Below are positions 12,231 to 28,465 of a DNA stretch of 64,000 bases, piece after piece (positions within the stretch are counted from its first letter, which is position 1; each line of letters opens with the position of its first letter). A model generated the notes under the pieces. That model did not search any database. It was not told the DNA's origin and saw only the letters and a list, made by a program, of their open reading frames with translations. The DNA is taken from the NCBI GenBank assembly GCA_010093605.1, contig MU004192.1, positions 1,124,882 through 1,188,881 on the forward strand, given 5' to 3'. The position numbers and the translations under genes are program-made. This stretch comes from Lophium mytilinum. Lineage: Eukaryota.

Positions 12231-12578
12231 AATCAGCGATCTAGAAGCCACACTTTGGCTTCGTGTAGAGATAATGCTCATGTCGTGGTGTTGAAGAGAA
12301 GTCGTTCTAGCAAACATCGTGAAGCTTGAGAAACAAAAAAGCGGGGCGGCTTGATAAGCCCATAATTCCCGTTTGACTCTAAGCCTAAAGAGGATCACGT
12401 AGACGATGTACTGACGGAAAGAAGAGCGATATCGCACGCCTTTTGATTGATGATTCACGTCAATAGATAGAGAGGTAAATGAGCAGAGTGCAGACTGAAA
12501 ACCCGCATTTTTGAGCAACACCCTTTCCTTCTTTTCATCTACAGTCTACACATCAGTTCCAAGTCAATTTCTTTAGCT

Positions 12579-13586
12579 ATGACTGATCGCCCGAGTGTTC
12601 TTCTCTTTGGCACGGGTGCCGTGGGATCTGTATATCTCTACCTTCTCTCCAAAACCTGCGACACCACCGCAGTATGCCGCTCCAACTACGCCGCCGCAAA
12701 AGCAAACGGCTTCACAATCCACTCCCCCCAAATCTTCGGCGAAACCCTCCACTTCACGCCCCGCGTCGCGCGCACCTGCGCCGACGCCATCACCCTCGAT
12801 GACGGTTCACCCGTCAAGCCCTTCGACTATATAGTCATCTGCAGCAAAGTCACCCCGAACACCATCCCCGCGCTCATCGCACCCGCCGTAACCCCCTCCC
12901 ACACCGTGATCGTGCTGCTCCAAAACGGCATCAACATCGAAGCCGAATACACCACCGCCTTCCCCACCAACCCCATCGTCAGCGGCGTCGTCTACCTCCC
13001 CGTAACGCAGACCTCCCCCGGCGTCATCCAGCACGGCGATATCGAGCGCCTCGAGCTCGGCGCGTACCCCTCGTCCGCTTCGTCCGCCCCTACGAAGCGC
13101 TTCGCGGAGCTGATTCGCGCGGGCGGCGGGACGGCAGAGGTGTGGGAGGATGTGCAGTTTAAGCGGTGGGCGAAACTGCTGGTTAACGGGTCGTGGAACC
13201 CCATCTGCGCGCTGACGCGCTCCTCGGACGTGCGGTTTATGGCGTCGTCGGATGGGCCGATGGCGACGGACTTCGTGTTCGCGGTTATGTTGGAGATTGT
13301 GGCGATTGCGAAGGCGCATGGGTATGAGAAGGTGGATGAGAAGGTGGCGACGGCGCAGTTGGAGCGGTTTAAGAAGCGGATTGATACGAGTAAGGGGGTG
13401 GGGAGTGAGCCGAGTATGTTAGCGGACGTCAGGGAGGGGCGGAGAATGGAGGTCGAGGCGATTGTAGGGAACGCAGTAAGGGCCGCGAAGGGGAAGGGGG
13501 TGGAGTGTGTGAGGTTGGAGACGATTTACGTGCTGGCTAAAGGGTTGGATGAGGCGATTGGGAGGGCGTTGAAGGGGCAGAAGTGA
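12579..13586 (+). CDS. Ketopantoate reductase (ApbA/PanE)-like NAD(P)H-dependent reductase, intronless
   Basis: GTGAVG Rossmann motif, CRSNY, LLQNGINIE, WAKLLVNGSWNPICAL, PSMLADVREGRRMEVEAIVGN. Confidence 0.9.
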   Translation: MTDRPSVLLFGTGAVGSVYLYLLSKTCDTTAVCRSNYAAAKANGFTIHSPQIFGETLHFTPRVARTCADAITLDDGSPVKPFDYIVICSKVTPNTIPALIAPAVTPSHTVIVLLQNGINIEAEYTTAFPTNPIVSGVVYLPVTQTSPGVIQHGDIERLELGAYPSSASSAPTKRFAELIRAGGGTAEVWEDVQFKRWAKLLVNGSWNPICALTRSSDVRFMASSDGPMATDFVFAVMLEIVAIAKAHGYEKVDEKVATAQLERFKKRIDTSKGVGSEPSMLADVREGRRMEVEAIVGNAVRAAKGKGVECVRLETIYVLAKGLDEAIGRALKGQK

Positions 13587-13866
13587 AGGGGTGAAGGCTT
13601 TCTCGAAATGCATACTGGGCGCAGAAGGAGTGTAGATGATTTCCATGCCTAATTGATAGACTACTCATGCTTATAGATTGTATAGCGAGCTATTGGCTCT
13701 TCATAGCGACGTTGTTAAACTGATAGACAACAAGCTCGGGGGCAGCCCAAGTAAGTCTCCCAAATTCTCAGAATACATTGAAAGAACCTGCCAAATATCT
13801 GCATTCAAAACTGAAACAAACCTTAGCAATTTAATGAAAGATGCGCCACTTTTTCCTTCGCAGCAC

Positions 13867-14889
13867 TCAGTTACCATTGGTGTGAATACCATTGGTGCCG
13901 TTGGTCTTTGTGCCGTTGACACTACCAGCCTTATAACTGACTTCAAAGCTGTAAGCGGGGTCATAATGCATAGCCCAATATCCATCCCAGATCTTGTTCG
14001 TGATGGGGCCGATCTTGCCATCCTTCACCGGCTTCCCATCCAGACTCGTGATAGGCATAATGCCACCAGCCGTCGTACACATAAACAGCTCATCGCACTG
14101 ATACGCAAGCTCCACAGGCACCACCTCGACGCGAACCTCAACACCATTTGCCTTCGCGACATCGATGACACTCTTTCGGGTAACTCCATGGAGCACACCG
14201 CGATCAGGTGTATAGAGAACACCGTCTTTAATAAAGATGATGTTGAAGCCCGACCCCTCGGTGACATTCGCATCGCCATCCGTGAGAAAAGGATACGCAG
14301 CACCACGGTCCCTCGCCTCATGCATTGCTCGAGTCAGATCGCCCCACTGCAGATTCTTAATCGTCGGATCCATCGCCCCAGGTGGGGTACGTCGCACAGT
14401 CCGCGCGATAATGGCGCTGCCTCCCTCAAGCTGCATAGCCGGCTCCATGACCCAGACATAGGGCTGGATGAACATATAGAGGTTGTTCGTAATGTCCTCG
14501 GCCTTGTACTCTCGGACGCCTTTCAGGCCGCGCGTGACTATCAGCTCGACGAAGGCGTCACGGATGCCGCTCTTAGCGAGCATATCGATGAGGATCGATT
14601 TGACCTCTTCCCTTGGGAGCGGGAGCTTTAGGCGCATTTTGGTGCAGCTTGCGGTGAGGCGGTCGAGATGGTCATCGAGGCGGAAGAAACGGCCATCCCA
14701 GACTGATGGCACGTCATAGGTGAGGTCGCTGTGAAGGAAGCCTTGGTCCATAAGGGGGATGCGGGCTTCGGCGAGGGGAGTGAGTTCTCCTGATATCCAG
14801 GCAACTCCGCGGGCGTAGGGATTGCTGCTGCCCTGGAGGACGCCGTCTCGGGAATTGTAGCCTGCGAATGTCTTCTTCATGGTAGTCAT
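13867..14889 (-). CDS. (R)-selective amine transaminase (PLP fold type IV), intronless
   Basis: [51 protein letters not shown] (PLP Lys), TEGSGFN, CTTAGG: nearly colinear with the Aspergillus terreus (R)-ATA as I recall it, and carries the H..Y / FVE / W signature of (R)-ATAs rather than BCAT/DAAT residues. Confidence 0.93.
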
Positions 14890-15731
14890 TGCGAAGTCGA
14901 AATATGGGATTCGTACTGGGTAAGCGTTAACTTTGGACTCGAGCGGTGTATAGAACCACCAAAGTCAAGCATAGACATTCAATTAAAGACTTACAAGTGA
15001 ATTTTAATGGTCAAGTCAGGCTTGCAGTGACTGACTACAATTTTGGAATTGGCTGAAGGCCCAAAATAAGATGTTTGCTATGTCAGAGTTGGGGGGCCGA
15101 CGTTGATATGGCGGTTGGAGATATATTTAAGAAGAGAATGGAGTGTTGAACTTTTAGAGAGGGGTCTTATTTCAAGACTTGTCGTTCCAGCAGGGTCGTT
15201 ATAAAGCATAGCTACCCTAGTGCACAACTAAGTATGCCCCTCTCTGGAAGTTGCTTATCTGGTGGGGTAGAACTCGCCTTCCCGAAAGGGTAATTCCCGA
15301 TCTAGTAATAGAGCCACTGTTGTACAGTAACTCTACCATGGCCTTTGCGTCAATGGCGATCGTGTTCAATCATGATAAGCGTTTATGGCAACTTAACGTA
15401 ATTGGATGAATGAGGATACACACTGAAAGGGGAATTGCTGATAGTTTCGAGGTGGAAACGCGTGCGCGCGTTCCAACAGTCGTGCCCCTCATCTTCGGCT
15501 GCGAATGCCTAGTATGGGCATTCTTAGTGTAGCATTGTGTCAGCGTTCTCGCCCTTCGAAGCTTTCAAGAACACCAAGAGTCGTTCTTCACCAAGAAGAT
15601 TGTCCCACTCGTGTGACTGTGAGGTCTGAACCGGTCGCTGCTACTCTTAAGACCTTGAGACTTGCCCTGGAAGTCGAACTTATTTGGCTTTGTTAGTATT
15701 GTCTTAGCAAAAGACGAAAGTCGGAGTCATC

Positions 15732-17058
15732 ATGGCGCAGAAGAATATTGTTGTGATAGGGTAAGTACAACGCGCAAACCCTAAATTTTCAATTGACTTA
15801 CACAGATTGTCCGCAGAGCTGGAGTCGCAGGATTGACGACAGCATTGCTGTTGTCGAAACATCCCCAATACCGGATCGTAGTAGCTGCCAAACATATGCC
15901 TGGCGACTATGATATCGAATATGCATCACCCTGGGCGGGAGCAAATTACATGCCGTAAGTATGACTGGTCATCCATGAGGTCTTTCAAGGGACAAGCCAT
16001 TTGACAAAGGTTGCGTTTAGTGTTTCGGTTCGTGGTACTGAGGCTGCAGAGTGGGATAAGAACACATGGCCTCCCCTAGAAGATCTAGCACGGAACCACC
16101 CTGAGGCTGGCGTGCACTTTCAAGGTACGTCCAGATATACACTACCTTTTCCTGTATTAAAGATTGCTGACTAGATTAAAGAATGCGAGATCTTCAGTCG
16201 TTCCAAGGACATTGGTTCTGCAACAGCAGATTGGTTTGCTGAGTTACTGTCTCCGAACCCATGGTTCAAGGACGTTGTGCCGAATGTGAGCTGTCCCCTG
16301 GCTGTTCAGACATCATGCCCATACTCATTCGTCTCTCCTAGTTCCGTTCGCTTCCCAAGGAAACTCTGAGCCCTGAAATCGATTCTGCAACAGCTTTCAC
16401 CTCTGTTTGCATTAACACGGCCATATACCTTCCCTGGCTGGTCTCACAGTGTCTCAAAAACGGTGTTACCTTCAAACGTGCCGTATTTAAGCACATCTCC
16501 GAAGCGTCCTTGCCCGGAATCCACCCCTCAAGCAAGGCTGATCTCGTGGTCAATTGCACCGGCCTCATGGCAAGCACGCTTGGCGGCGTTGAGGACAAGT
16601 CCGTTATTCCCGCCCGAGGGCAGATTGTGGTCGTCCGCAATGTTGCTGACAGGATGGCTGATGTGTCCGGCACCGACGATGGAGATGGCGAGGCATGCTA
16701 TGTCATGACAAGAGCCGCAGGCGGCGGCACGATCCTGGGCGGGTCCTACCAGAAAGGCAATTGGGAGTCCCAGGTCGATCCTAATCTGGCCATTAGGATC
16801 ATGAAGAGAGCAGTGAAGCTGTGTCCTGAGCTGACAGGAGGAAGAGGAATCGAACACCTTGACATCATCAGACACGGTGTTGGATTGAGACCTGTTCGAC
16901 AAGGCGGAACGAGAATCGAAAAGGAGCGCATAGACAAAGTATTGGTGGTACACAACTATGGCGCCGGTGGGGCCGGATACCAGTCTTCGTACGGATGCGC
17001 GCAGGCTGCTGTAGCCTTGATAGAGGAAGCACTTTCGTCAACACGCGCTCGTTTGTAG
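15732..17058 (+). CDS. DAO1: D-amino-acid oxidase (FAD), 4 introns, C-terminal PTS1 (-ARL)
   Basis: Spliced MAQKNIVVIG|AGVAGLTTA...DIEYASPWAGAN; VVNCTGL, PARGQ, GVGLRPVR, HNYGAGGAGYQSSYGCA. Confidence 0.92.
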
Positions 17059-17577
17059 AGGCCGTAAACAAAAACTACACGCGTCGAGAATATCCCTCTT
17101 CCAGACTTGGTGGATGCGCAATGGAGCTTCCGATTTCCGCTTGATGGTTGGGAGCTTTGAGGAATTTGAAAATACCACTTCTCGGCGATATACTATCACG
17201 CTTGAGATGAAAAGAACAGAGACATCGATGCCATGAGTTTGTACCCCAAATTATGACGCAGCTTAGTCACAGTTCCCCATCGATGAAGCTAACCGTAGTT
17301 CGCTTGGTGCAAGATCCTCTTTGCTTATCGGTGAAATCGTGCAACTCCCTCTCCAACATCCACCCCGATGCTTCATCCTCTCATCCTTCCATTATTTCTC
17401 CCATCTCAATCCGCCAAATGCAAATCAGCTAGCGGCATAGAGCATGGGGTGACATAGCCTCCCGCGTCTTCCGCCGCTCTTTTCAACACTAGGCACGAAA
17501 CGAGACTCTGCATATGCTGTAACTCTAATCTACACCCACCACCTCGTAAGCAGAGGGCCCAACGTTTCTCGCCTCAA

Positions 17578-19821
17578 ATGGCATCCGTCCAGCATGTGAG
17601 ATCTGGTGCCAAGAATTCCGGTCATCGGACAAATTCCCTCGGTTACGCCAAGATTGATTGCCACACCTGCGCAGCATCGAAAGAGCCTTGCGATCGCCAA
17701 CGTCCCTGGTGTGGCACCTGCATTGCAGCTGGGCAGAAATGTGGTGGTTTTGCCATGGATCTAGTTTGGAAGGGCCTTGCAGTCGCCGATAACGCCACTC
17801 AGTCGTCTCCAAGCAGTGGATCGAGTGTGGACCGCAAACGGCAGAGACAGTCATCCAAAGAGCACCATGAATTCAAGTTCATTCAAGGCCGTCCCAAGAG
17901 AAAGCGCAAGCCAAAAAACTCCGACCAGCAGACGATGATAGGTAGCCTTCGTCCATTTCATCTAAGCGATCAGGTCGATGTTGTTGTGGCAGCAGCTCCG
18001 CAGACTGTTGTCAACCCTATCATTTCCGAACCTGGGTCTAGCTCTGGAGGTTCGGTATATGGCGACCTTACGGAGCTCAATGACGGGCCGTTTATACACG
18101 AGAATGCTTTGGGATCTCGCCTACCACACCTAATGTCCTTTGAATCCAACCCAGACATTACAGTAGAAATGCCCCAACCAGCCTACGATACGACAAGTGA
18201 CAACTTTTGGCACGACTCACCCGAATCGAATACACTTTTACCCCAGAATTTAAGCTCGCCGTCGCTCAATGACGCTAGATTCCTCGAAGACTTAGTTGCG
18301 GAAGGCCTTCAGCTAGTCACAGGTGGTTCCAACTTTGCACAAAGCCGGTTAATATCAGAGGGCTTCACGTTTCCAAACGAAGAAAACACCGACGAAGTCA
18401 CTTACGAAGAACAATTCCCACTCGCTGTCGGAGTTCCTTATCGAGATTTAGCTCACAAATATAGCCCAGTACTCGCGATGTGTTAGTGATCCTCTCTATT
18501 GTTAAGTAGCATGCTTTATTAATTCTATAGCTGACAATATTTAGATGACGAGGACTTTTGCGTTATGCCACTAAGCAGAGATTGCTCTACGAATCCGTTC
18601 CGCATTTGTATAAATCGTTCCCAAAGTTCTGCCTTTCTCCTACATGCGATTCTCGCCCTCTCTTCACAGCATCTGGCCAAAAAGAACGACTGTGCTGCTT
18701 TAATGACTGAAATGCACAATCACCGATCGAGTGCAATCCAATTGTTTAGTCAGGCTCTAGGCAATACGCAATCGAAATTCCGTCCGCTTCTGGACACAGT
18801 CTTAATATTAATTAATCTCGAGGTAACAATTCTCCATCATGGCGACATTCGTAGGCTGACAAGTCTCCCAACCAGATAACCCAATCAGCGCGTGGTATGT
18901 GGGGAGTGCATCTCAACGGCGCACGGAGACTTCTTGAGCAAGCTGGACCAGTGGAAAAATGTCAAGGAAACTCACGGATTCGTGCGCAGTTGGCGATGCT
19001 TGTCTGGTATGGTAGCGCCTTTCAATTTGATGAACTTTTAGGTCTATATTGACAACTGTTTGTGCAGGTGGGATGTCACCATCGCTTTCATCGCAAGGAA
19101 AGAGCCCCGCCTGCCTATCGCATACTTGGAGACGCTGATGGAGTATGACGAGACCGACGGCTGGACTTATTTCATACTGAACGGGTGCCCACCGGAGCTC
19201 GTTATGGCTATGGCCCGTCTCGCAAAATTAGCAGGGATATACGAAAAGACGACTCGGATGGAGTGGACGATGTTCAACCACGCTCCAGTCGACGCCATCG
19301 TTGAAGAGGTCAAGAACTTTGTCAACGACGCGGATGTGGATCTAGATGACCTTGAGCATATGGAAGAGGATGCGGATACGCGACGTAATCGATTCCATTG
19401 CATCGAGGCTTGGAGGCATGCCATTCTACTTCATGTCTGTCGTGTTTTCACTCCAAAGCAAGACGCATTCGGACTGCGATTGATCAGTCACCTATCCCGT
19501 GTTGTCCTTGACCATGTCCGATGCATACCGGCTACAGAGGTCATTCAGAAACAGGTACTTCTGCCGATATTTCTCGCTGCGTCCGAAGCCGGCGATGAGC
19601 ACAGCCGTTCTTTTGCCCGCCAATACTGTGAACACTGGAACATCGCATCCCGAACTTCTCATTTTCAAGCCACTGCGGAGTTGCTCGAAGACATCTGGAA
19701 AGATTGGAGGCATTCAACGAGAGATGTCTACTGGTGGGGTCTCAAAACCGGTGGTCAGGTTTGGCCGCAGACTGGTAGCGGAGAAGATCAATCCATGGTC
19801 TCGGAACTGCTTCTGGGATGA
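17578..19821 (+). CDS. Zn(II)2Cys6 transcription factor with fungal-specific C-terminal domain, 3 introns
   Basis: CHTCAASKEPCDRQRPWCGTCIAAGQKC; NPFR...LLHAILALS..HL; EAWRHAILL; LLPIFLAASEA. Confidence 0.88.
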
Positions 19822-20179
19822 AAGGAAGCTGGAGATATTCTCGTATGACTTTGGAAGAATTCGTTCGGCACACGGATATCCCGCTGTCTGCTTACCACTC
19901 TTGAATCCTGGACGATGACACGACACTGACGGATGATGAGTTGAACCTAAATGGGTATAGCTATACCACGGGAGCGCGAATCATGCAGAACGGAATGGTT
20001 ATGGATGGGATTCTGTGCACAGGCTGGGAGGAGTCCGGCTGCTAATGCGGGCATTCACCGGCCTAAATACCCCTTCTCCTTTCTTTTCCTTCTTTCTGTG
20101 GATACTCGGAAGTTCCCGAATGTTATCGTAGTATAGCAGCATAACCACAAGAATAACTAATAAATCTCAAGTTTGTATC

Positions 20180-20700
20180 GTTGGTACCTCGCAACGATGG
20201 CGTCTGAGGTTTCTCGAGCTATTTTCTAATTTCCCAAAACAGTGAATTTTCAGTCCTTTCAGGTGTCTGATACCACTTCGAAGCACTTCAGACAGTACCA
20301 ACCCGGGCTACATACGAATAAAGGCGTGCTCAACTGTGCCATGCTGAATCCAGCACAGAGCTTGCAGAGGATCTTCCAAATGGTACCTCCTCAGAAGCAT
20401 GTGGACACTTTTGCAAAGCGACGTCTGAGGTGGCCCAGCTGGTTCACTGACTGTTCAAGAAGATCTGATCTCTCCTGTTCTAACTTGATGAACGTATTTT
20501 GAAGGACAACATGCAGTGGTGAAGCGGTCTACACAGCTTTTCAGCGCAAGGCAAGCCCCCCCGCCCCCCAACGCCATCACTTGGTATCCAAGTGTGCACC
20601 CTGCTATTACTCAAGAACATGCTCAAACTCCAACAGAACAGATTTTACACCGCATCCCGATTTTCCAAAGGCTACGGAGACACCTCAAGCAGTGTCATAA
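20180..20700. repeat. Cluster of the same dispersed motif (inverted pair plus singles)
   Basis: gcgtctgaggtt at ~20200, gcacttcagacag at 20283, cgtctgaggtggccc at ~20422, cacctcaagcagtg at ~20681; cores match the 1440-2370 array. Confidence 0.75.
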
Positions 20701-20867
20701 GAGTGTGCACAGACTTCCCAGCAAAAACACCATCTTCGATGTCATCTCATAGCACTCATGCAGATAACAAATATTCAGAACTCCGCTTACAATTCTCAGC
20801 ACCACAAGAGCCTACGAAATCACACTACTAAACAACAAATGTTTCCACCCATCAAAGCCCTTCCCCA

Positions 20868-22700
20868 TCACGACTTCTGCGCCATCCCCACAGCATCCTC
20901 ACTATTCTGCGTACTCAACCCATCCACAACCTCCAACCTCCCCACAATAGCCGCATGCCTCCTCTCCTCCAACAACGCATAATTAACATGCGGCCCCACA
21001 AACTTCCCCTTCTTCGACGTAAACCACAACGCAATCACAAACGCCACCAGCCCCGTCGACACAACGGACACGTAGCTCATGTTCTGAGGCGTAACCGGCA
21101 TGGAAGTCGGGAAGCAGTACAGGATGTCGAGAAACACGACCCAGGCGACCGACACGCCGTTGATGGCGGCGCCGCACTTGCCCAGGCTGAAGTAGCGCTC
21201 GGGCAGGACTTTGTCGCGGCCGCGGTAGAGGAGGATGGCTTGTGGGATGACGCAGGAGGTTTGGAGGAAGACGATGGCGGCGCTGAGCATGGCGGAGAAG
21301 GCGGTGGTGGAGCCGATGAAGATGACGCCGTAGATCTGGTAGTGGTGTTAGTTGGGGGTCTGCTTCTGGGAGGGAGAGGGCGGGTTGCGGACCGAGATGC
21401 ATGATGCGGAGAGTAGCATGGCGTTCAATGGCATTTGGAAGCGAGGGTGGACGGCCATCCAGATCTTAGAGTAGGGTAAGGCTCCGTCGCGGGAGAAGGC
21501 CCATAGGGTGCGCGATGCGGTGGTAGCTAGATACTTGCGTTAGTCCGGCTCGAAGACGAAATGCCATGCTCAGGTGGCTCACCGTTAGCGACCAAGTTGC
21601 TGAAGAAACAGAACGCAAAAACAGCCATCAGTATCGATGCGGCAACGTTGGAACCAGTCCCTTGGCGGTAAATTTCGATCAAAGGCAGTCCCGTCGGGGT
21701 GGCTAAGACAGCACTGAGATCCGTGATCGCGTACATCAAAGCAGCAGCAAAAGGAAACGCAGTAATAAGCCCCATGAGGAGAGGGTACATGATGACCTTG
21801 GGGACGTTTTTCCCTGGCAGTGGAATTTCTAGATAGGAAATTAGCGAAGCACGCGTGCTTAAGCTCACTGAAGTTTACCTTCGCAAAGATGGGCGCCGCC
21901 ATCACTGCCTAAGAAAGAGTAGACAGCGTTACCAACCGCGAGCATGAACGTCCAGCCCTCGCTTGACCAGCCGCTTTTGCTAGTGGTGTCCGTGAATATG
22001 AATGAAGCTGTTGCGTGGTGGTGGCGACCGACCACAAAAAGGACGATCATTGTGCTGGTGAGAGTAACGATCGACAGCAAAAACACAAACTTATTATAAA
22101 GCGGGATCCATTGAGAGCCAAAGACATTGATGGCCACAGCTACCCAAATGAGGCCGACGTAGATCAAGTATTGCTGCCAGTGTTGTTGGCTGTAGTCTGG
22201 ATACCAGACGTACACAATGTCCAAGATCATCGATGAGACGAAGTTGGCCACGGAGCCGGCTCCTAGCCACCAGCCGAGTACGCTGACCCATCCGTTGCTA
22301 AGAAGAGCACGAAAGTCAGTGTCTGTATTCTTCGTCCTGAAATGGTGGAAGCTTACACAAAAGACAAGAACGGCTTGTACTCGTCGCTTGATACCATAAA
22401 CGACCAGTAGTACTGCGCACCAGCACAGGGATATGCAGATGCTAGCTCTGCCATTCCAGCTGACACTACCAGTGTCATCATCCCAGCGATCGGGAGAGAC
22501 CATAGCGTGCCAGCAGATGAGGCTTCCGTCAGACTGATGCCAACGGATGACCCGGTCCCAAGCCAGGTGCAGGTCAGGGTGAAGGAGAGTGCACTCAGAG
22601 ACCAGAGGGAGAACTGACGGGGCATCGACTGCTTGTAGCCAGCGGCTTCAAGCTCGAGGTTGTCGAGCCGGGCAGCATCGTCGCCGAGATCCAGTGACAT
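20868..22700 (-). CDS. APC-superfamily amino acid/choline/polyamine permease (HNM1/UGA4-like), 4 introns
   Basis: MAELASAYPCAGAQYYWS, GWVSVLGW, SGWSSEGWTFML, GSDGGAHLCE|EIP.PGKNVPK, SRTLWAFSRDGALPYS, FPTSMPVTPQNMSYVSVV. Confidence 0.9.
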
Positions 22701-25554: not shown

Positions 25555-27525
25555 CTATGCCGGCGATGTCACCTGCTTTCTCCTGATATCGTTCCACCCC
25601 ACTCCCCACACAACACAGAAGCAAGCGCACGCCCCACCAGCACTCAGATAGAACACCCGATCAATCGAATCCGCATACGCATGCAATACCCCCTCCAAAG
25701 CCGCCCCCTTGAGTACCTTCCTGAACCCCCGCGCTCCTGCATTGACCACAAACTGCACATCAACGCCGGGGGCATATTGCGGGATCTTTGTTTTGAGGGA
25801 ATTGTTGAGAATCGTGTTCGCGGAGGTGAGCATAATGGAGCCCATAAAGGTTTGGCTGAACATGACGCAGGAGATGGCGAGAGCGACCTGCCTCTCCGGG
25901 ACGCCGTTCTGGGCGGCGAGGATAGCCTGAGCGGGGGGTGTTAGCTTATTGGGTCTTTTGCCAATGTGGGAAAAAGGGAGCATTTTCGAGATCAGGTAGG
26001 AGTAAGGAAAGGTGGAGAGGAACTCACGATTTGGGTACCCATACCCTGACCCGCACCGAGCAGGACTTGGAAACCGACTTGTCTGGCCTCTGGGGTGTGC
26101 ACTGAGAATGTAGAGAAGAGCCCCGCGGCAATAGCTAGAAAAACGCTGGAGGCAACGCCAAAGGGAAGGTAATAACCGAGTTTCGAGACTGCGTAGATGT
26201 TAGTAGACACTCATCATAGACGCATCTCTCCGCCTGAACAACGTACTAGCGACGCCTGTGCTAACCCCAAATGCAATATTGACCATAATATTTGGCAGCA
26301 GATCGACCCCACTCATTGTTGGCGAGCGACCCTTGACTGTCTGGAAGAAAATAGGCAAGTAGTAGGACGAGAGGAACGTGCCAGCCATCAGGAATGCCAT
26401 GAACATGCAGGCGCAGTAGATGATGCGCCGAGAAATCATCGAGGGCGGGATCATGGCCACGTCGCCCATTCGCTTCTCCCAGAAGAAGAACACGATGTAT
26501 GTAGCGCCGCCACCGCAGAACAGCCCGATGACGACCGAGCTGTCCCAAGGGTGCGAGACGCCGCCGAATTGGAGGGCCATGAGGACCATGATGGACGCGG
26601 ACGCAAACAACACGAATCCAGCTAGATCGAGTTTGCCCCAGACATTACGGATGACAATCGAGAACTTCTCCTTGGGTATCTGGTCGGGAACGTCGACGAA
26701 GAGGAGGGAGGCAGCGGCAACGCCACCAATCGGAAGGTTGATATAGAAGCCTAAGGATCAAAGGAATCATGTTAGCATACTGCCAGAAAATCCGGGGTGA
26801 ACAAGGGTAGAATGGGAGGGGATCTTACACCATCGCCATGATACGTATTGAGTAAACGCGCCTCCGAGTACTGGCCCGATGACTAGACCGAGCTGAGCCC
26901 CTCCCATGCAAATCCCTTGTAGGGCAGGTAAGCGAGATTTCGGAACGGCTGCGCTGATCAACGTTAGGGCGCCGTTTTGGAGGCCTGAAGATCCCATGCC
27001 TGCAACCGCTCGTCCAATAATCAGCATTTTCGAGGACGTGGCCAAGCCGCATATCAAAGACCCAACCTCGAATACCGCAAAGCAGATGAGGAATAACCAT
27101 TTCAGGCGAAAGTAGGTGTATAGTTTCCCCGTCATTGGTTGGAGAGCAGCGTTGGCAAGTGTGTAGGCGCCGCCATACCAACCGACGTCGGGTACGCTGT
27201 GAAAGGCATCGGTGATGCTAGGGATCGCAGTGCCAATGATGACGATATCGAGCAGCGTAAGAAAGCAGATAAACGTCACAGAGCTCATGAGGAGCAAGAG
27301 CTTCGTGCCTAGGATGTACTCCTTCTGGGGTTCGGTATCCTCGTGCGGTGTCTCTGTCTTTTCATCATTCACGGATGGCGAGTGCGTCGAAGGCTCTGTG
27401 TTTCTTTCCACTTTGTCATCATGATCGTGTGGCAGCACTGCGTTTTTGCCTCTCGGAGACGACGAAAGCGTAGACACGCTTTTGCGTTTCTCTGATTCAT
27501 AGTCTGGTCCTTGGGAAGTGTCCAT
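25555..27525 (-). CDS. MFS drug:H+ antiporter (DHA2, 14-TM efflux family), 3 introns
   Basis: [86 protein letters not shown]. Confidence 0.92.
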
Positions 27526-28465
27526 AATGGTAGTCAAGATATGTGCTTGGAAAGTCGTGCATTAGACGTGCTCTGAATGTAATTCGGACATTTCAGTATA
27601 ATAGGGATATGTATTTTGGATTCTAGGGCTGTTAGCAGGTTCCCATGATCTTTAAAAGATCTCGCATGCTGAAAACGAAGCTATGGCTCACCTAACTAGG
27701 ACTAGCGTCCGGATTTCAGGCGTTTCTGAATCCCGAAATTCGAGGAAGTAAGTGATCTCCGCCAATTGAGTCAAACACGTAGGTACGCTTTGCGCCTAAA
27801 AAAGAGGCGTGGTTCCCCGCGGAACCCCCGTTATCGCCGCCGCAAAGGACCTGATAGAGATCTCCGATCACCAGTTATCGTTTACTTTGCCAATGAGACG
27901 CATCGCTTAGCACGCTAACTGATCACTTAGGCCTATCCAAGTAGTTGCGGTCGAAAGTCGGGCCGCCAAGCGCCGACCGGCCCTCCATTCACTTCAAAAG
28001 CGGTAAACTGATTCGCCGACTCGTATGCTTAAAACCGCGTATGAATTAAAGTGATTCACTGTTTCGAGAACAAACTGTATTTTGTTCAGTGAATGTTGGT
28101 TAAGAAAAAGGGCTGATCTAACCTAATGTTGTACCAGGATTGTCGATCCCAAGGGCGCAAATACGAAGTGAGTCAATGCGATACCCAACAGTCCAATCTC
28201 GCCCCCGGATTATCGTATGAACTGCAGTCGGCCTTACGAGGGCAGTACTATGTATTCTGTGCTTCGACAAGCGTAGCTGGGCATATCATACTATGCTCCG
28301 TTGTACAGGAGTTGACTCATTATGTTCTCATGAGGTCTAGCCTTCCTGTCAGGCGCCGAATCCGGAGCTTGCGTGAATGTACATTGCGTAGTCGTACAGA
28401 GTATCCTGATATTGCCTGGTTGCGATAGACTCATCTTAGCGTGAAGATCACGCCTGGCCTGCGTT

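Follow-up and report, generated by a model that had tools for sequence, protein, structure and literature searches.

A conserved cluster of (R)-amine transaminase, D-amino-acid oxidase, Zn2Cys6 regulator and permease genes in Lophium mytilinum as a candidate nitrogen-scavenging system

Genes and transcripts at the locus

The DNA analysed here, called the window in the following, is a stretch of 64,000 nucleotides from Lophium mytilinum (contig MU004192.1 of assembly GCA_010093605.1). Between its positions 13,867 and 22,700 lie four genes, encoding an (R)-selective amine transaminase (ATA), a D-amino-acid oxidase (DAO; DAAO for the enzyme class), a Zn2Cys6 transcription factor (TF) and a permease. 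A first-pass annotation, made from the letters of the sequence, had described these four genes in the same terms, and Pfam and PDB matches, gene models and spliced contigs bear the description out. The divergent promoter that it had placed between ATA and DAO, at about 840 bp, measures 842 bp from ATG to ATG. The features of the cluster are as follows.

13867..14889, minus strand: (R)-selective amine transaminase (ATA), fold type IV; single coding exon, 340 aa, C-terminus -NGN
14890..15731, no strand: spacer between the divergent ATA and DAO start codons (putative shared control region), 842 bp; covered unbroken by one contig of run X3
14916..14994, minus strand: intron in the 5' untranslated region of the ATA mRNA; joint 14915/14995, ends CT..AC (GT..AG on the minus strand), seen in contigs of runs X3 and X4
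15732..17058, plus strand: D-amino-acid oxidase (DAO), 363 aa, C-terminal -ARL; exons 15732-15760, 15817-15954, 16021-16124, 16182-16285 and 16342-17058
17578..19821, plus strand: Zn2Cys6 / Fungal_trans_2 transcription factor (TF), 688 aa; exons 17578-18481, 18545-18822, 18876-19006 and 19068-19821
20868..22700, minus strand: APC-superfamily permease (ACT-type, TIGR00907-like), 536 aa; exons 22700-22357, 22297-21879, 21828-21583, 21526-21393 and 21335-20868

The window ATA matches the Pfam profile Aminotran_4, the fold-IV aminotransferase domain, with 159.3 bits (cut-off 28.5). The solved structures closest to it all belong to fungal (R)-amine transaminases, namely 8zm7 (1.4e-187), followed by 6fte, 4ce5, 4chi and 4cmd, and among the database matches listed its identity ranges from 72 to 81%. 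Both sequence motifs of (R)-selective enzymes, tested as [HR]-x4-Y-x-[VT]-x-[HSAPT] and [YF]-V-[EAQN] (the Hohne motifs, as quoted in the accessible part of PMC8048526), are present, the first at residue 53 and the second, FVE, at residue 113; 117 of the 120 best database matches carry both as well. Aligned with the solved ATAs, the catalytic lysine is K178 within KNLQWGD, and no RxH carboxylate trap can be read from this alignment in the stretch after FVE. Judged by database identity and by the E-values against solved and assayed enzymes, the window ATA would be expected to act on (R)-amines with pyruvate.

The DAO gene was modelled by hand, with five exons and an ATG at 15732. Its last exon matches the Pfam family DAO with 89 bits, and in a PDB comparison made with this exon only, the closest solved relative is the DAAO of Rasamsonia emersonii (7ct4, ReDAAO; 1.7e-102). 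The GXGXXG motif for binding of flavin adenine dinucleotide (FAD) reads GAGVAG and spans exons 1 and 2. The substrate-binding residues Tyr244, Arg308, Gly335 and Gln339 of ReDAAO are conserved, with acY, glRp and GaGgaGyQ aligning with 7ct4, and the segment GANYMPV corresponds to Asn53-Val57, where Asn53 marks fungal DAAOs and His stands in D-aspartate oxidases (DDOs); the Tyr, Arg, Gly, Gln and Asn are listed for ReDAAO in the accessible part of PMC6697736. Orthologues with 74-94% identity, among the matches listed, carry the name D-amino-acid oxidase in the database. The window DAO is predicted to oxidise D-alanine, an activity demonstrated in its relative ReDAAO, for which the accessible text of PMC6697736 gives 70% of the best rate, a kcat of 189 per s and a Km of 2.7 mM; the same text reports growth of R. 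emersonii on D-alanine as sole nitrogen source.

The two enzymes differ in their C-termini. The ending -ARL of the oxidase, which the first-pass annotation had read as a type 1 peroxisomal targeting signal (PTS1), fits PROSITE pattern PS00342 as quoted in the accessible part of PMC6697736, and PTS1-like tails are found on 42 of 49 full-length DAO matches. No PTS1 was found at the C-terminus of the window ATA (-NGN), which is probably not peroxisomal. Unexpectedly, PTS1-like tails (-GKL, -AKL, -SKL) do occur on 31 of the 120 best database matches of ATA and on 7 of 15 ATAs of the metagenome loci described below (L005, L008, L009, L010, L012, L016 and L037), which suggests a peroxisomal site for an enzyme commonly regarded as cytosolic. 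Because PTS1-like tails are found on both proteins, ATA and DAO are probably both peroxisomal in many fungi.

The gene model of the TF was guided by an intron-less orthologue from locus L005. The six-cysteine pattern CX2CX6CX6CX2CX6C is legible in its translation (class pattern CX2CX6CX5-12CX2CX6-8C); the Pfam profile Zn_clus reaches 18.2 bits, under its cut-off of 21, on the window protein and 24.3 bits on the orthologue from L033. Fungal_trans_2, the fungal-specific middle domain, is matched with 58.5 bits. The permease model is identical to a database protein of 536 aa (P0246) and matches Pfam AA_permease_2. Its match to TIGR00907 (2A0304) extends across the entire model (1-482 of 482), with 393.9 bits against a cut-off of 598, and therefore the label "HNM1/UGA4-like" of the first-pass annotation holds at the level of the family but not below it. 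The database names of its relatives vary and include "choline transport protein" and "amino acid/polyamine transporter I".

Among the public runs listed as containing sequence of the window, none is catalogued as RNA. Two of these runs nevertheless yielded spliced contigs, which carry no expression levels: those of X3 are at least 99% identical to the window, and those of X4, at 90-99%, come from a relative. In the X3 contigs all four cluster genes are transcribed and spliced; the X4 contigs cover ATA, DAO, TF and part of the permease. Introns were removed as modelled at four of four positions in DAO, three of three in TF and three of four in the permease gene. A single X3 contig extends without a gap from 12486 to 17164, through a neighbouring ApbA-like gene, ATA, the 842-bp spacer and DAO, with the introns of both strands removed. 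The two divergent transcripts, those of ATA and DAO, must therefore overlap or meet within the spacer. The same contig reveals that the 3' ends of the ApbA-like gene and ATA, which are convergent, overlap.

Linkage in other genomes

When metagenomes were scanned with 20 aligned fungal ATAs as the query, 80 loci were obtained, of which 29 are fungal-like (GC content of at most 0.575) and 51 bacterial-like. As ATA served as bait, this sample is silent on the share of DAO genes that lack an ATA. A DAO-family gene stands beside ATA in 9 of the 29 fungal-like loci, or 8 distinct ones, since L034 and L035 are the same in sequence. Six of them (L001, L005, L008, L033, L034 and L035) carry a DAO of the window's type, and in L001, L005, L008 and L034 it lies head-to-head with ATA as in the window, with spacers of about 0.5-0.9 kb. 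The three others (L009, L011 and L017) carry a second type of DAAO, 28-34% identical to the window DAO, closest to RgDAAO (1c0i) and ending in -ARL or -ARI.

The complete set of four genes is present in L005, L008 and L033, arranged differently from the window: the TF gene lies past the 3' end of ATA in L005 and L008, and the permease gene is head-to-head with ATA in L033. Orthologues of the TF adjoin ATA in these three loci and in L007. Partial sets are found in L012 (ATA and permease) and L007 (ATA and TF). In a quick and poorly resolved tree of ATAs, the DAO-linked loci are scattered over Dothideomycete- and Eurotiomycete-like branches. Their flanks are unrelated by Pfam, with a sugar transporter, a cupin, PhyH, an acyl-CoA dehydrogenase and FEN1 among the products, and all-against-all clustering of open reading frames revealed no other gene family recurring with the DAO-linked loci.

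The linkage can also be followed in named genomes. Ten species have both ATA and DAO among the best 120 matches of each list, and the two genes lie within two records of each other in six, 8-10 records apart in two and on different contigs in two. Consecutive accessions are found in Lophiotrema nucula, Lentithecium fluviatile, Aspergillus japonicus and A. pseudonomiae, and a distance of two records in Capronia coronata and Penicillium olsonii, with 37-38 records in two other assemblies of P. olsonii. In Exophiala xenobiotica and P. salamii the genes share a contig at 8-10 records; the ATA of E. xenobiotica is the very protein of PDB 6FTE, and its gene is 8 protein records away from a DAO. ATA adjoins the permease gene in Scytalidium lignicola. 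In Thelonectria olida, P. roqueforti, P. psychrosexuale, Exophiala spinifera, Knufia peltigerae and Stylonectria norvegica, the distance between DAO and the permease gene is two records or locus tags, which equals the DAO-TF-permease spacing of the window. Altogether, linkage in named genomes spans Eurotiales, Chaetothyriales, Pleosporales and Hypocreales.

The first-pass annotation had asked whether such linkage recurs around (R)-ATA orthologues and had named its absence as a ground for giving up a joint function. It does recur, and its absence is therefore not what we found, but it is not universal.

Among the 51 bacterial-like loci, whose ATAs are 54-66% identical to the fungal enzyme, 8 contain a full or contig-cut gene for the D-amino-acid dehydrogenase DadA within 10 kb of ATA; for example, the DadA of L052 reaches 662.7 bits with NF001933 (cut-off 383). 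Five of these loci (L047, L050, L052, L053 and L062) represent one lineage with the order DadA-PF10014-ATA-MFS, and L060, L070 and L071 are separate from it. A further two loci, L040 and L043, contain no more than fragments of DadA. Where DadA, a PF10014 dioxygenase of the 2-oxoglutarate-iron (2OG-Fe) type, the (R)-ATA homologue and an MFS transporter occur together, they lie on one strand in an operon-like arrangement (e.g., L052:7123-12380).

Homologues from Caulobacterales and Rhizobiaceae share 60-66% identity with fungal ATAs, and the fungal ATAs are placed among bacterial sequences in a quick, poorly resolved tree, which hints at a transfer of ATA between the domains. In L049, L056, L057, L058, L059, L065, L068 and L073, the fold-IV ATA homologue is immediately preceded, on its own strand, by a class-III aminotransferase gene (e.g., L065:8683-9918), so that two fold types are paired; the class-III enzyme resembles glutamate-1-semialdehyde aminomutase, with scores under the cut-offs of that family.

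Some neighbours of the cluster genes should also be described. Past the DAO of L001 (L001:5393-7915), a short Zn-cluster-like match (56% over 43 aa) is followed by a Sugar_tr/MFS transporter in place of the APC permease; another transporter family may fill the permease slot there. A PhyH-type dioxygenase gene is found near the ATA-DAO pair in L034 (L034:5960-6820) and near ATA in 8 bacterial loci (e.g., L054:2809-4923). In the window itself, the gene next to ATA is the following.

12576-13586, plus strand: ApbA/PanE (ketopantoate-reductase-like) gene, convergent with ATA, 280 bp between the stop codons; expressed (X3)

This reductase gene was ruled out as a fifth member of the cluster, as no homologue is present in any of the 80 loci. 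The MFS transporter gene at 25558-27561 was likewise ruled out, its resemblance to the MFS proteins encoded near ATA in L014 and L015 being a general family likeness (46% over 143 aa).

Candidate function and alternatives

We favour, with a confidence slightly above even, the reading that the four genes form a conserved catabolic cluster for nitrogen scavenging: ATA and DAO would exchange D-alanine and pyruvate in a shuttle that frees ammonia from an imported amine. The permease would import an amine, or its inducer. The (R)-ATA would move the amino group to pyruvate, giving a ketone or aldehyde and D-alanine, and the peroxisomal DAAO would oxidise D-alanine to pyruvate, NH4+ and H2O2. The Zn2Cys6 factor would switch the cluster genes on. 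In the net reaction, amine, O2 and H2O would yield a carbonyl compound, NH4+ and H2O2, with D-alanine and pyruvate as a catalytic carrier pair. Both half-reactions are established for relatives of the window enzymes, in that pyruvate and D-alanine are a pair used by (R)-ATAs and D-alanine is a substrate of the closest characterised oxidase; by analogy, the window pair may do the same. The A. terreus ATA, for example, both consumes and forms D-alanine, along with a few other D-amino acids (accessible part of PMC3907554). We infer that the two reactions are coupled in vivo, that the substrate is an amine of (R) chirality and that the four genes are co-regulated. The conserved co-localisation across distant taxa, amid flanks that are not conserved, is what is looked for in a catabolic cluster.

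Several observations weigh against this interpretation. To our knowledge, no natural (R)-amine substrate has been described. Eight fungal-like loci with at least 4.9 kb of upstream sequence contain no DAO in it (the remaining 12 of the 29 have less than 3.5 kb upstream), so that roughly half of the assessable metagenome loci are without ATA-DAO linkage; these unlinked loci make up about four ATA lineages in the quick tree. In Talaromyces proteolyticus and A. avenaceus, ATA and DAO are on different contigs, and adjacency in the other named genomes is indirect, being deduced from consecutive accessions or locus tags, that is, from database practice and not from inspection of the DNA. In the 24 loci from genomes of bacterial species, DadA was not found within 8 kb of ATA in any, and the bacterial ATA-DadA link is therefore partial. 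The contigs of X3 and X4 show expression, not levels or co-induction. As the ATA of the window is without a PTS1 and its DAO has one, D-alanine would need to cross the peroxisomal membrane in this fungus. Concerning a shared promoter motif, no 7- to 10-mer common to five ATA-DAO spacers exceeded the expectation from shuffles in an admittedly crude test. Likewise, no k-mers of the window spacer are shared with the four orthologous spacers, and pairs of CGG/CCG show no common spacing in the five. Finally, the DAO of Mytilinidion resinicola is 94% identical to that of the window, and no comparably close ATA is present among the matches listed, the best of which reaches only 81%; the DAO-TF-permease trio might stand alone as a D-amino-acid module.

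Some of these points would fit genes that are independent of each other, held together by inherited or hitch-hiked synteny that was possibly spread by segment transfer. Linkage is absent from several lineages, the spacers have no common motif, and shared ancestry means that raw locus counts overstate the number of independent cases. Synteny without function is, however, hard to reconcile with a clustering that is kept amid unconserved flanks and changing gene order: it is the cluster genes, and not their flanks, that stay together across classes of Pezizomycotina, and they do so while order and orientation vary. In addition, two DAAO clades are linked to ATA in fungi and DadA in bacteria, and the biochemistry of both enzymes converges on one metabolite pair. 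We consider a lack of functional coupling to be quite improbable.

The similarity between the DAO of M. resinicola and that of the window, with no comparably close ATA, is also in line with a different proposal, in which the cluster serves the utilisation or detoxification of D-amino acids. Here the permease would import D-amino acids, the DAAO would be the main catabolic enzyme, and activity on (R)-amines would be a side activity of ATA, which would funnel D-Ser, D-Thr or D-homoalanine into D-Ala or give a route free of H2O2. The six named species with DAO and permease two records apart, in which the presence of ATA is not established, are in line with this, as are the several D-amino acids used by the A. 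terreus ATA (accessible part of PMC3907554) and the growth of R. emersonii on D-amino acids as sole nitrogen source with a broad DAAO (accessible part of PMC6697736). A broad DAAO would, on the other hand, leave a funnelling transaminase largely redundant, and the window ATA combines both (R)-ATA motifs with the absence of a visible RxH trap after FVE. The permease belongs to a choline/gamma-aminobutyric acid (GABA)-type family, being TIGR00907-like, and not to the usual family of amino-acid permeases, and the bacterial ATA-DadA operons hold neither an amino-acid racemase nor a D-amino-acid transporter. On balance we regard this proposal as unlikely, although it deserves to be kept in mind.

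Transaminations are reversible and fold-IV transaminases occur in biosynthetic routes, so a synthetic role was weighed as well. In this case ATA would aminate a ketone with D-alanine to form an (R)-amine metabolite, DAO would trim the D-alanine pool or surplus donor, and the permease would move an intermediate in or out. An extra class I/II aminotransferase gene is present near DAO in L033, which would suit such a pathway. The surroundings do not: no polyketide synthase, nonribosomal peptide synthetase, terpene synthase or tailoring enzyme was found in the window or recurring in the loci, and no alanine racemase is present as a source of D-alanine. Furthermore, an oxidase that destroys the amino donor opposes synthesis. 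We judge a biosynthetic cluster to be very improbable.

Returning to the nitrogen-scavenging shuttle, a wider version of it can be put forward tentatively, and we would sooner doubt than accept it in full. ATA and DAAO would then constitute an old, largely peroxisomal "split amine oxidase" with free D-alanine as a dedicated amino-group carrier, which would give D-alanine a physiological role in filamentous fungi. It would travel through Pezizomycotina as a set of two to four clustered genes open to rearrangement, its ATA having perhaps come from alphaproteobacteria; bacteria would apply the same logic with DadA, and the permease and regulator would point to the natural substrates.

Comparison with known systems

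The manufacture of chiral amines relies heavily on (R)-selective amine transaminases. The fungal enzymes characterised so far, from A. terreus (4ce5), A. fumigatus (4chi), Nectria haematococca (4cmd) and Exophiala xenobiotica (6fte), resemble the window ATA with E-values of 1e-158 to 1e-187 and share its motifs; they differ in having been studied as catalysts. In the accessible parts of PMC3907554, PMC8048526 and PMC5131300 the terms "physiological" and "in vivo" are absent, and "natural" appears in PMC3907554 only, in an unrelated sense. In the full-text literature, the accessible parts of PMC5169069, PMC9309667 and PMC7653285 included, we found neither a published ATA-DAO gene linkage nor a natural role of fungal (R)-ATAs; subscription journals lie outside this coverage, and a prior description is possible. 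With regard to peroxisomal DAAO catabolism (ReDAAO and RgDAAO, 1c0i), the window DAO is a relative of ReDAAO at the level of an orthologue, with binding residues and PTS1 in common, whereas the accessible part of PMC6697736 makes no mention of a linkage to an ATA, a Zn2Cys6 factor or an ACT-type permease. The conserved partnership of ATA with a D-alanine-oxidising enzyme, a regulator and a transporter makes the natural role of (R)-ATAs experimentally approachable, and it indicates where to seek their natural substrates as well as naturally matched ATA/DAAO pairs for cascades. If our interpretation is true, it adds a nitrogen-scavenging route with D-alanine as a catalytic intermediate.

The combination of an (R)-transaminase with a DAAO is known from the work of chemists, in whose cascade the transaminase makes D-alanine and the oxidase regenerates pyruvate. 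The enzyme families and the metabolite pair are the same as in the window; here, however, the two enzymes are paired at the level of the genome and nature has conserved the pairing, which comes with a dedicated regulator, a permease and a peroxisomal targeting signal and would serve the proposed shuttle in vivo. A natural counterpart is found in the bacterial Tpa/Ald modules, in which taurine:pyruvate aminotransferase is encoded beside alanine dehydrogenase, pyruvate is regenerated and ammonium is released. Both systems place an amine:pyruvate transaminase gene beside that of the enzyme deaminating its alanine, but Tpa/Ald relies on L-alanine, a dehydrogenase dependent on nicotinamide adenine dinucleotide (NAD) and a class-III transaminase, as opposed to D-alanine, an FAD oxidase (DadA in bacteria) and a fold-IV transaminase. 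In its architecture, the window cluster is the same as the proline and nicotinate utilisation clusters of Aspergillus nidulans, which comprise enzymes, a Zn2Cys6 factor, a transporter and divergent promoters; it differs from these nitrogen-catabolic clusters in its enzymes and in the logic of a co-substrate shuttle.

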